Of a stretch of DNA of 64,000 nt, positions 23,694 to 47,088 are shown piece by piece. Made by a program: the position numbers and the translations under genes. Below the pieces are notes generated by a model. It saw nothing but the letters and a program-made list of their open reading frames with translations, had not been told where the DNA came from and searched no databases. Source of the DNA: Escherichia coli (GTDB lineage Bacteria > Pseudomonadota > Gammaproteobacteria > Enterobacterales > Enterobacteriaceae); assembly GCF_024700885.2 (NCBI RefSeq), contig NZ_CP117016.1; one strand, 5' to 3'. Position 1 is the first letter of the stretch, and every line of letters begins with the position of its first letter.

Positions 23694-24305
<612 letters not shown>

Positions 24306-25228
24306 TTACAGGTGCATTCAGTTTCCTTAGTAAACCGGAGGTAAATAAGATACGTAGTACATATCAATAAAGGTTAAACGAGATTAAGTTTAATTATTTT
24401 CGATTGGGCTTAAATTTATGTTTTTTTCCCGATGAGTGTCAATATGTGAACGGAAAAGGAATTCAATGGTTAAGTCAATATTTAGAAAAACTGAAAATAT
24501 TGCTTTTTTGATAAGAAGAAAAAGACATTTAGTTTCATAAGGTTATTGGCAATATAACGTTCATTTCTTACTTGCATTTTATATTGGTCAGGAACTTTGC
24601 CCTGAAGTGTTAGGAATAGTCTTAATGCGCTGTGTGATGGACTAGTAAAAAAACAAGTTTTAAGGGTAAGGGATAGAATATAAAACTATTATGAGCTGTC
24701 ATTGAAGATGATTTGCCAATCAGTAAGATATTTTAATGGATTAACATGCCGCACAAAATGGTTATAGGTGTTCATTACAATAAGTGATGGAAAATTGAAC
24801 GGGTATAAGTACGTCATCTGTTCGGTAAGTCCCCCAAGAGCCAAATTAAGTGAAGTTAAACGAAGGCTGCCAGCTGTCACAGGAACGATGGCCTCTTTGT
24901 CAGGGCACTGCATTCAGTCATCTGTGCGCATTACTCTAACTGGCACTCGAACGTCAGCGACGGGGTTACCGGTGGATCAGGCTGTTCCTGTGGCGTAAAC
25001 GTTTTTATGTTAGTACCAACAGATTTACCACATTTATCATCTTAACAGTTTGAGTGAAAATGCAGGCTGCGCCGCAAAGGGAGGAGACTGATGGCGTGTT
25101 CAGTCTAAAAGAGGGTTGATGCCAGCATACAGGGGCGAAGCTGGTCAACACGTCAACATTAATATAATGGAATATTCGGAGAGAAACGTCAGGCAGTTGA
25201 CCTTAAATGAACAGGAAGATACATCCCC

Positions 25229-25268
25229 AGGAAAATTAATGCTGGTGTAATAAATACACCAACATTAA
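25229..25268 (-). terminator. Intrinsic terminator of the rpmE2-rpmJ2 operon
   Basis: 14-bp stem TTAATGCTGGTGTA / TACACCAACATTAA (one G-U) then, on the minus strand, TTTTCC. Confidence 0.6.
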
Positions 25269-25319
25269 TCCGGTCTGATTATTAATCAGACAAATATCGT
25301 TAATTCGTCGAATTTTAAA

Positions 25320-25460
25320 TCAACGTTTTTTCTTACGACCCTGAACGGCCTTAAAACGTGGATTAGATTTACAAATCACATACAGCCGTCCTTTTCGCTT
25401 CACAATCTGACAGTCTGGATGGCGTTCTTTTGCGGTACGCAGAGAGTTAAGGACTTTCAT
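25320..25460 (-). CDS. rpmJ2: 50S ribosomal protein L36 paralog (zinc-independent), 46 aa
   Basis: Hand translation [46 protein letters not shown]; below the track 60-aa cutoff; start overlaps rpmE2 stop (ATGA). Confidence 0.9.
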
Positions 25461-25723
25461 CATGCCTCCTTTTTCGTGCTAACAAAACGACCAAAACGTT
25501 GGGTGAACCGTGCAACATTTCCTTCTGATGCCACTGTTCTCAGCTTCCCTGTATAGAACGGGTGCGATTTCGAAGAGACATCAATTGTTACGTACGGATA
25601 CGTTACGCCATCCAGCTCAATCTCACGGTCTGTTTTGATAGTCGAGCCGATTTTAAAGTACTCATCAACACTGGTGTCATGGAACACCACAGTACGATAC
25701 TCAGGATGGATATTGGGTTTCAT
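25460..25723 (-). CDS. rpmE2: 50S ribosomal protein L31 type B paralog (zinc-independent), 87 aa
   Basis: [18 protein letters not shown]... lacks the CxxC zinc ribbon; preceded by a Zur box. Confidence 0.9.
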
Positions 25724-25731
25724 CATTTTTA

Positions 25732-25754
25732 CCGGTTATGTTATAACATAACCG
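25732..25754. promoter_or_regulatory. Zur box (zinc uptake regulator operator) upstream of rpmE2-rpmJ2
   Basis: Palindrome CCGGTTATGTTATAACATAACCG immediately upstream of the rpmE2 start. Confidence 0.8.
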
Positions 25755-26087
25755 CAAAGATACATGCTCATCCGGATCATTTCAACACCCAATCCCTGTG
25801 ACTATTTGTAGGATGTGGAATTTCCGCAACGGAGAAGTCTGGTATTGTTAGCAGCCATTGGCGACGCTCTCATAAACGCCTGGATGAGTGATTGATGATG
25901 GTTTCGCTGAGAGTATGAATTTTTCGAGAATGGAGGCTATCTCCACTTTACTGGCCGATGATTTATCGCAGTTTGATTGATTACCTGACAGCGTGTATTC
26001 CTCTCCCACGGATATAATAATTACTTACAAAAAAGGGAGAGGATGCATATTTTAAATATCACTGCAGTGAACAGTTTATTGCCGTTA

Positions 26088-26189
26088 TTAATAGAAATGG
26101 AGAAATAAATAGGCGTATTCTACAATTGCGACAAAAACAACGATATTAATCAGTTTATGACTGATTTGCTGTACTTTATTCTCTTTCAT
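26088..26189 (-). CDS. ykgR: Small membrane protein YkgR, 33 aa
   Basis: Hand translation MKENKVQQISHKLINIVVFVAIVEYAYLFLHFY; below track cutoff. Confidence 0.7.
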   Translation of the reverse strand: MKENKVQQISHKLINIVVFVAIVEYAYLFLHFY

Positions 26190-26661
26190 TGGTACTTCCT
26201 CGCTTTAAAAAAGAGTGCACTTCGTAAGTGCCCTTATATAAATAACGAGTTTGGTCAACCAATTTTTTGATATGTATCACAAATTTGAATAGATGTATTA
26301 CATCGGCTATCTTTTATTGCCCCAACGTCATTGATATATGTCGCCTGAAGTCAGTCCGGGAATGAGTCTGATCTCAAAACTGGCCCAGTCCGGGCGTTGA
26401 TTGGTGCTGAGGAGCATATCGCATCTCATCATAATGTCGTATCTCCTGGGGTGTTATACAAGATATCGTTGTTGGTGACCTGGGCGAGGAATTGAGTTCT
26501 ATTAAACCGTCAACTATGCTGGATACATACTGGATTACACTGCAGGCACGCCTTACGAGAGAACGTGCCGCAGTGACGGGTTAATTATCTGAAAGAATTT
26601 GCGAGACTGTATCGGTTACTCATTGATTTGATAGTTTTACTCTCGGGAGAGTAATAGATAT

Positions 26662-27804
26662 TTAATCTATTAACGGAAACCAGCCAGTTCCTTTCGATGC
26701 CTGAATTTGATCCCATAGTTTATCCGGAATGGTTAATTCAGGAACAAGTTGTGGATTAAGGGTTGTTTGAATTTCATGGCCTCTACCTGATTCAGCTAAA
26801 GTCACCCATTCTGGATTTATCACCAGCCCTTTACCGATCGCAACAAGTGGCAGGCCAGTGGAAATTGCTTCTTGAGCCTGAGACGGTGTGCGTATTTTAC
26901 CTGCAGCGATTACCGGCACTCTGCCTGCAATATGATTTAAAATCAATTCAATAGTTCGGGGGCCATTTGGCGACTCAACAGGGTAGCTATCGTTAATACT
27001 GACCAGCGAGGTATGTATATACGAAATACCGGATGAAATGAGCCGATCAAGGAGTTTATAAGTATCCTCTATCCGCAGCCCCCCTGTTACAGATTCTTCA
27101 GGAGATATTCTGTAACCGATAGCAAAGGGCTTTGTCGCATATTCATAGACTACATTTTTTACTTCCTGTAATACGGCCAGCGGGAAGCGCATACGTCCTT
27201 CAAGATCTCCTCCCCATCGGTCATTACGCTGGTTAAATAGAGGGGAGAAGAAATTCTGCAGAAGGAATCCGTGCGCACCATGAAGTTCAACGCCATCAAA
27301 ACCTGCTTTAATCGCCCTTTTTGTGACATCTCCGAATGCTCTAATGGTTTCCTGAATTTCGTTTTCAGTCATTTCCCTGCTTTGTACCACTCTCTTCATA
27401 AAGTCACCAGATTTTACGCTTGATGCGCTGGCACTAATAACATCGTTATTTGGTACAAGCTCCGGGATGGCTTTATTACCGGCGTGGAAAATCTGCAAAA
27501 TAGCCGGAGCCCCCCCACTTTGGGCTGCCGCTGCTAACTTTTCAAGGCTGTTAATGAAACGGTCGTCATATGCGGCAAATTCATGAGTAAACCCAATGCC
27601 GCTTGGCGTGACATAGGTACATCCTGTTATTACTAAACCAACATTTTGTGAGCGGCGTTTATAAAATTCGAGTTCTTGCTCAGAGATGGTTCCATCAGGA
27701 TTCGCTGACCAGGTCGTCATAGGGGCCATAACGATACGATTACGTAGCTTTATTTTTTCTGTCAGCATAAAAGGAGAAAACAATGATGGGTGTTTATTTG
27801 TCAT
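26662..27804 (-). CDS. Old Yellow Enzyme family NADH:flavin oxidoreductase (380 aa)
   Basis: OYE/NemA-like sequence including HGAHGFLL...F motif region. Confidence 0.8.
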   Translation of the reverse strand: MTNKHPSLFSPFMLTEKIKLRNRIVMAPMTTWSANPDGTISEQELEFYKRRSQNVGLVITGCTYVTPSGIGFTHEFAAYDDRFINSLEKLAAAAQSGGAPAILQIFHAGNKAIPELVPNNDVISASASSVKSGDFMKRVVQSREMTENEIQETIRAFGDVTKRAIKAGFDGVELHGAHGFLLQNFFSPLFNQRNDRWGGDLEGRMRFPLAVLQEVKNVVYEYATKPFAIGYRISPEESVTGGLRIEDTYKLLDRLISSGISYIHTSLVSINDSYPVESPNGPRTIELILNHIAGRVPVIAAGKIRTPSQAQEAISTGLPLVAIGKGLVINPEWVTLAESGRGHEIQTTLNPQLVPELTIPDKLWDQIQASKGTGWFPLID

Positions 27805-46846: not shown

Positions 46847-46956
46847 GAGAGATATGAAGTCTGGACATAAACCTGAAGAAGGCATACGAGGTTGAAAATA
46901 GCGTTTAGGACAACCTGACTTAACCCCGTTCTGTCATGGTTATGCTCCTCTTCTTT

Positions 46957-46989
46957 AAATATCCTGGCATTAGTAATGCCAGGATATTT
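46957..46989. terminator. Bidirectional hairpin between convergent ykgG and ykgH
   Basis: Perfect 14-bp stem AAATATCCTGGCAT / ATGCCAGGATATTT with 5-nt loop. Confidence 0.5.
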
Positions 46990-47088
46990 ACAGTGAAAAA
47001 GACAGGCATCCATTCCTGAAAACGGGTTCCCTTCCCGGTCATTGTCACTTCAGTTTTATACAGGCACTCTCTATCAGAATGCTGTTTA

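Follow-up and report, generated by a model that had tools for sequence, protein, structure and literature searches.

The ykgM-ykgO (rpmE2-rpmJ2) operon of Escherichia coli, which encodes the zinc-starvation ribosomal paralogs bL31B and bL36B under the control of Zur, occupies positions 25320-25754 of the window, the 64-kb stretch of DNA analyzed here. We put the probability of this identification at about 0.97. Reading of the sequence places the entire operon on the minus strand, and the ends of the region are exact, with the ykgO stop codon at 25320 and the outer edge of a palindromic operator at 25754. E. coli strain 1190 is 100% identical at the DNA level over a 701-bp region, in which RefSeq annotates ykgM and ykgO. 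The K-12 MG1655 operon (b0296-b4506, also designated L31p/L36p) represents the same locus. K-12 and the window have in common the gene order ecpA, ecpR and ykgL, followed on the opposite strand by ykgO, ykgM and ykgR. They also share an identical 18-19 bp operator core, the promoter hexamers and YkgO, and the YkgM proteins are 99% identical. The locus is found in 5061 of 5426 complete E. coli genomes (~93%), where it is annotated as ykgM (type B L31) and ykgO (type B L36).

The initial annotation had described a Zur-controlled operon of zinc-independent L31 and L36 paralogs with precisely these coordinates. This observation is confirmed and its interpretation is supported. The only adjustments concern the strand, which was left unstated and is minus, the overlap between the two genes, which is likely 1 nt, the agreement with the 23-bp Zur consensus, which reaches only 15/22, and the status of the 22-bp palindrome as a rare allele. 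The operon is already known in full mechanistic detail, and the present copy contains nothing new. It is a textbook example of zinc sparing through ribosome remodelling, and its promoter serves as a zinc-starvation reporter. The importance of this copy beyond correct annotation is small, though it does mark the window as the ecp-ykg region of the E. coli chromosome.

Loss of zinc ligands in bL31B and bL36B

The first gene, ykgM (25460-25723, minus strand; RefSeq coordinates transferred via strain 1190), encodes the 87-residue zinc-independent bL31B. The predicted protein aligns with K-12 YkgM at 99% identity with a single change, G86E, and its residues 1-68 are identical to chain D7 of ribosome structure 6i7v ("L31 type B"). 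With the NCBIfam model for type B L31 (NF002462) the protein reaches 122.8 bits (cut-off 86), and the two type A equivalogs, NF000612 and NF001809, give 58.9 and 53.7 bits, both under their cut-off of 70. Pfam PF01197 also matches, with 87.1 bits. The RT-PCR primers that Gilston et al. designed for "L31p" find exact matches at 25615-25634 and 25520-25539. In the alignment with K-12 RpmE, the L31A residues C16, C18, C37 and C40 correspond to T17, V19, S50 and S53. No Cys remains anywhere in YkgM, which has an insertion of 12 residues relative to RpmE. As judged from these alignments, bL31B is without all four zinc cysteines (CxC...CxxC) of L31A.

An additional in-frame ATG at 25726, one codon upstream of the annotated start, gives the longest ykgM ORF (25460-25726, 88 residues). 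Both the NCBIfam and Pfam profiles begin at residue 2 of this 88-residue frame, and the start is likely at 25723, as annotated, rather than at 25726. The window allele lacks a strong Shine-Dalgarno sequence ahead of the ykgM start, where it reads CGGT instead of the AGGT of K-12.

The second gene, ykgO (25320-25460, minus strand), encodes the 46-residue bL36B according to the RefSeq annotation, profile matches and identity to K-12. The protein is 100% identical to K-12 YkgO in the alignment, and also to chain C5 of 6i7v ("L36 2"). It scores 90.9 bits with the NCBIfam type B L36 model NF002021 (cut-off 70) and 68.5 bits with Pfam PF00444. Alignment to K-12 RpmJ pairs residues C11, C14, C27 and H33, which we take to be the zinc ligands of the CCCH zinc-ribbon of L36A, with H14, C17, C30 and F36 of YkgO. 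By this comparison the CCCH zinc site of L36A (CxxC...C...H) is lost in bL36B, where CxxC has become HxxC and the His has been exchanged for Phe. The protein is CxxC-less yet not cysteine-free, as C17 and C30 are kept and a His is gained at the first ligand position. Three potential ligands are thus left (H14, C17 and C30), and we regard weak metal binding by these residues as unlikely.

The identity of the two genes and the changes at the zinc-ligand positions are direct observations, and they bear out what the initial annotation had proposed. The alignment to E. coli ykgM-ykgO that it suggested returns the K-12 proteins, and the CxxC-less L31 and L36 signatures are present (T17/V19/S50/S53 in one protein, H14-x-x-C17 and F36 in the other). 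The match of YkgM to chain D7 of 6i7v gives indirect support to its incorporation into the ribosome instead of L31A.

The two genes are co-oriented, their stop and start codons overlap, and a Shine-Dalgarno sequence for ykgO, AGGAGG (25465-25470, minus strand), is located within the 3' end of ykgM. A sequence scan reveals no promoter-like or terminator-like site between ykgM and ykgO. The bicistronic geometry is plain from the sequence, and co-transcription is expected by analogy with the K-12 locus (PMC9825181, PMC7297116). With the annotated starts, the genes overlap by 1 nt in the sequence TGATG, and translation of ykgO is probably coupled to that of ykgM through TGATG and the AGGAGG at 25470-25465.

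The initial annotation reported an ATGA overlap. This sequence is literally present at 25463-25460, where the longest-ORF versions of the genes meet, and it would place the ykgO start at an upstream ATG (25463), producing a 47-residue protein and a 4-nt overlap with ykgM. ATGA overlaps are a common coupling arrangement. The upstream ATG exists in the window allele and in strain CB6837, it defines the longest ykgO ORF (25320-25463, 47 residues), and the equivalent K-12 codon is a GTG that is still able to serve as a start. We nonetheless consider initiation at 25463 improbable. RefSeq annotates ykgO from the second ATG in all of the genomes examined, the profiles of NCBIfam and Pfam begin at residue 2 of the 47-residue ORF, and the bL36B chain in 6i7v starts with MKVLN. 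In addition, the AGGAGG motif lies only 1 nt from the upstream ATG compared with 4 nt from the annotated ATG at 25460, and the upstream codon is unconserved, being GTG in K-12, O157 and EH41. These starts, profile alignments, the structure, the Shine-Dalgarno spacing and the GTG codons all favour the 1-nt overlap that follows from the conserved, annotated start. The two genes would be coupled under either ykgO start, so the biological conclusion is unchanged.

The Zur operator and the putative promoter and terminator

The palindrome that the initial annotation placed ahead of rpmE2 is present as a perfect 22-bp inverted repeat, CGGTTATGTTATAACATAACCG, at 25733-25754, identified through inverted-repeat and motif comparison. 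Its 11-nt arms (CGGTTATGTTA|TAACATAACCG) are 100% complementary and spacer-free. It ranks as the second-longest perfect palindrome of the window, and when the same stretch was simulated 200 times with a first-order Markov model, only 3 runs reached arms of at least 11 nt. The 18-bp conserved core, GTTATGTTATAACATAAC (25735-25752), is unique in the window even when three mismatches are allowed, with 0.01 occurrences expected. Gilston et al. (2014, PMC4219657) derived the Zur motif RxxxYRxxR*YxxYRxxxY from crystallography. The core, written as GTTATGTTA*TAACATAAC, agrees with 8/8 of its positions, is self-complementary at 18/18 and has TATA at its center. No other 18-mer in the window combines 8/8 skeleton matches with more than 14/18 palindromic positions. 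On its own, the 18-nt skeleton is not specific (it matches at 237 places in the window) and discriminates only in combination with palindromicity. A 22-nt purine/pyrimidine pattern was also tried and discarded as uninformative (525 matches against 523 expected).

Agreement with the 23-bp consensus for gamma-proteobacteria, GAAATGTTATANTATAACATTTC (Panina et al. 2003, in the form quoted by PMC4219657 and PMC2706843), is modest: the best alignment matches at 15/22, a level that two unrelated AT-rich sites of the window also reach. The operator has a compact, even-centred form, and it is closer to the 18-bp form GATATGTTATAACATATC quoted for alpha-proteobacteria (PMC2706843), which it matches at 16/18. 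The core and the promoter hexamers are invariant in eight E. coli strains, and the bases flanking the core vary, with GC, AT, GT or AC on one side and C or A on the other.

The limited fit to the textbook consensus, together with the non-specific skeleton, could be taken to mean that the palindrome arose by chance in AT-rich DNA or is the operator of another Fur-family regulator such as Fur, given that Fur and Zur boxes are alike AT-rich palindromes. Several observations make this very unlikely. The L31p operator of K-12 has an identical core, and it binds purified Zur and acts in a zur-dependent manner in vivo (PMC4219657). The central TATA, which is contacted by Tyr45 and sets Zur boxes apart from Fur boxes, is Zur-specific and absent from the Fur box (PMC4219657). 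Furthermore, the core is unchanging among strains while its flanks vary, and in 92 of the 120 loci listed from other genomes the 18-mer adjoins genes for zinc uptake or zinc sparing rather than iron genes. A non-Zur reading is effectively refuted, and by its sequence the palindrome is a real Zur operator type. The sequence of the operator and its conservation are observed directly; binding of, and repression by, Zn-Zur at this particular site would follow by analogy with the K-12 operator of identical core.

The cross-species evidence comes from an exact scan for the 18-mer in one genome per bacterial species, which returned at least 120 loci. For each, the first gene reading away from the box on either side was taken, these genes were clustered, and cluster representatives were classified with Pfam. 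Among the matches listed, 92 of 120 loci have a neighbor of zinc-regulon type, a category that comprises CobW/COG0523, Fur-family, ZnuA, ZnuC-type ABC ATPase, TonB-dependent receptor, FolE2, ZinT, peptidase M15 and L31B/L36B. In the 120 loci listed, the neighbors include 29 CobW/COG0523 GTPases, 14 Fur-family regulators, 13 ABC ATPases, 10 TonB-dependent receptors, 8 ZnuA, 7 L31B, 7 periplasmic binding proteins, 6 FolE2, 4 ZinT and 4 M15 peptidases. An L31B and/or L36B gene has its start 11-37 nt downstream of the box in Escherichia albertii, a divergent Escherichia, Aliivibrio, Enterovibrio, two Moritella, one Acinetobacter MAG, Morganella and another MAG. These neighbors independently identify the palindrome as a zinc-regulon operator, without recourse to consensus sequences.

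All of the loci listed are from Proteobacteria but one, a Brevinema andersonii MAG (L117), for which chance, contamination or horizontal transfer are possible explanations. In Morganella psychrotolerans (L044) and a proteobacterial MAG (L025), the gene directly behind the 18-mer box is an L36B homolog, not L31B, which suggests a reversed gene order or an arrangement with L36B only.

The putative ykgM promoter is composed of a -35-like hexamer, TTGAAA (25780-25785), and a -10-like hexamer, TATCTT (25757-25762), both on the minus strand and separated by 17 nt. This 9/12 combination is the only sigma-70-like match in 25000-26100, a count that is not significant alone (1 found, 3.0 expected). Two nucleotides separate the predicted -10-like hexamer from the palindrome, and nine separate the palindrome from the ykgM ATG. 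Because the palindrome is only 2 nt past this hexamer, a transcription start near 25750 would fall within the operator, and with a 30-bp footprint both the -10 and +1 positions would be covered and RNA polymerase blocked. The literature searched contained no mapped ykgM transcription start for E. coli.

At the other end of the operon, inverted-repeat and RNA-fold analysis reveals a candidate terminator hairpin at 25231-25269 (minus strand), whose 15-bp stem is followed by a short U run. Its arms (25255-25269 and 25235-25249) are 93% complementary. The hairpin is situated 51 nt beyond the stop codon of ykgO, within the ykgL pseudogene, which is convergent with ykgO. RNA folding of 25222-25322 gives -33.8 kcal/mol with a z-score of -6.7. 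The stem is kept in K-12, where a U.G wobble of the window becomes U-A, and Aseev et al. (2020) draw a terminator after ykgO. A terminator scan did not call the hairpin distal to ykgO because its T-tract is short, and the sole hit of that scan (25076-25061, 244 nt past the stop) is no better than those in shuffled sequences. An Rfam search of 24300-26700 (E<=1) produced a single hit, to folP-RNA at 25206-25307 (minus strand), which overlies the terminator hairpins. Its 20 bits compare with a gathering score of 99 (E=0.47), and we dismiss it as chance.

Zinc-dependent control and related systems

Studies of the K-12 locus provide the basis for a mechanism in the present copy. When zinc is sufficient, zinc-loaded Zur would occupy the operator at 25733-25754 as a dimer of dimers. 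Since the operator abuts the -10 element and covers the predicted transcription start, RNA polymerase would be blocked and the operon kept silent. On the K-12 operator, two Zn-Zur dimers protect ~30 bp, and ykgM is repressed 560- to 1000-fold (PMC4219657, PMC7297116). Among the four E. coli operators tested, that of L31p has the most palindromic sequence and binds Zur most tightly, with 560-fold repression in vivo and a Kd-app of 0.025e-18 M^2 (PMC4219657). For comparison, the znuC and pliG operators of E. coli are less palindromic and repressed 7- to 8-fold (PMC4219657).

Upon exhaustion of zinc, Zur would leave the operator and a single short-leadered mRNA would be made. Derepression of ykgM in K-12 has been obtained by chelation with TPEN or EDTA or by deletion of zur, and a ykgM-lacZ reporter rises ~1000-fold in a zur mutant or with TPEN (PMC7297116). 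From this transcript bL31B would be translated, with bL36B translation coupled via TGATG and the internal Shine-Dalgarno sequence. The zinc-free proteins would then take the place of the zinc-binding bL31A and bL36A in the 50S subunit, as YkgM and YkgO replace L31 and L36 in the ribosome (PMC9825181, PMC7297116), an exchange thought to free zinc for other uses. bL31B would also repress expression of rpmE (L31A) through the rpmE 5'UTR, by which L31p represses L31 synthesis (PMC9825181). For the window, the analogy to K-12 thus extends to Zur binding, repression, incorporation into the ribosome and rpmE feedback.

A close parallel outside E. coli is the ykgM-rpmJ2 operon of Yersinia pestis (YPO3134-3135), which has the same two genes for C- paralogs and is directly repressed by Zur (PMC2706843). 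There, Zur protects a region that includes the Zur box and extends over the -10 element (PMC2706843), in agreement with the geometry predicted for the window. The Y. pestis start was mapped by primer extension, whereas that of E. coli is predicted. Bacillus subtilis ytiA (rpmEB) and the mycobacterial alternative ribosomal protein operon follow the same logic, in which C- paralogs repressed by Zur substitute for zinc-binding ribosomal proteins during zinc starvation (PMC7297116, PMC6094098). The Bacillus Zur box consensus, TAAATCGTAATNATTACGATTTA (PMC2706843), differs from the site described here, and the gene sets vary from single genes in Bacillus to two in E. coli and four or five paralogs in mycobacteria. 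In Proteobacteria, the exact 18-mer is found directly upstream of znuA/znuC, zinT, COG0523 GTPase, FolE2 and TonB-dependent receptor genes. Those operators control uptake or zinc-sparing enzymes, whereas the window operator controls ribosomal paralogs.

Strain variation and genomic setting

The window carries a minority allele of the operon. Its promoter allele appears in about 23 of 5045 records, and the 22-bp palindrome is rare, as most strains have 18-19 bp and the perfect palindrome of K-12 measures 18 bp. The difference from K-12 arises because flanking GC..C replaces AT..A, and since the core flanks vary among strains, the perfect 22-bp palindrome is specific to the window allele. At 25733-25734, ACAGGT of K-12 becomes ACCGGT, which lengthens the palindrome and removes the AGG before the ykgM start. 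At 25458-25470 (minus strand), K-12 GGGGGCGTGATG is replaced by GGAGGCATGATG, which yields the perfect AGGAGG Shine-Dalgarno sequence (GGGGG in K-12), the G86E substitution and the new in-frame ATG upstream of the ykgO start (GTG in K-12).

The longer palindrome, the change from AGG to CGG, the AGGAGG motif and the new ATG could in principle tighten Zur repression and shift the bL31B:bL36B translation ratio relative to K-12. We find such a quantitative alteration doubtful. The allele differences are minor natural variation, with no evidence of a functional consequence.

We find it scarcely credible that this strain retains the operon only as a decaying remnant without function. Its convergent neighbor ykgL is frameshifted (intact in K-12), the region upstream of the operon differs from that of K-12, and the A-to-C change both extends the palindrome and leaves a weaker AGG ahead of the ykgM start. 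Neither the ykgM nor the ykgO ORF is disrupted, however, and their products share 99-100% identity with the functional proteins of K-12. The promoter hexamers and the operator core are preserved, and the annotation of the identical strain 1190 lists ykgM and ykgO as intact CDSs.

The pseudogene itself, ykgL (25060-25285, plus strand), is convergent with ykgO and frameshifted in the window lineage. It is annotated as frameshifted in strains 1190 and CB6837, and it is intact in K-12 and EH41. On the other side of the operon, a 33-codon ORF at 26088-26189 (minus strand) is identical to the small membrane protein YkgR and lies ~360 nt upstream of ykgM on the same strand. Beyond ykgR, the window contains genes for an NADH-dependent flavin oxidoreductase (380 residues; 26662-27804 and beyond, minus strand) and an alpha/beta hydrolase, in contrast to ykgP, an eaeH pseudogene and IS3 in K-12. 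The junction upstream of ykgR is thus strain-variable. There are also 13-14 matches to the ykgMO region on E. coli records labelled as plasmids, which may reflect either mobilisation or the labelling of assemblies.

Some E. coli genomes possess a second, orphan type B L31 gene, which accounts for ~630 extra matching places. In O111:H8 SF26 102-1, this gene (L009:1500-1763) shows 94% protein and ~82% DNA identity to ykgM and sits among traT, integrase and IS421 fragments without an L36B partner. Its upstream region is not homologous and contains no inverted repeat or palindrome, and being non-homologous it is uninformative on the ykgM operator. The sole candidate Zur site nearby is a weak skeleton match at L009:1375-1392.

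The longest perfect palindrome of the window, TAAATATCCTGGCATTAGTAATGCCAGGATATTTA (17-1-17), is located at 46956-46990, in the interval that separates the 3' end of ykgG (LutC family) from a convergent hypothetical gene, and in a region conserved in more than 5100 E. coli genomes. It may act as a bidirectional terminator or as a protein-binding site.
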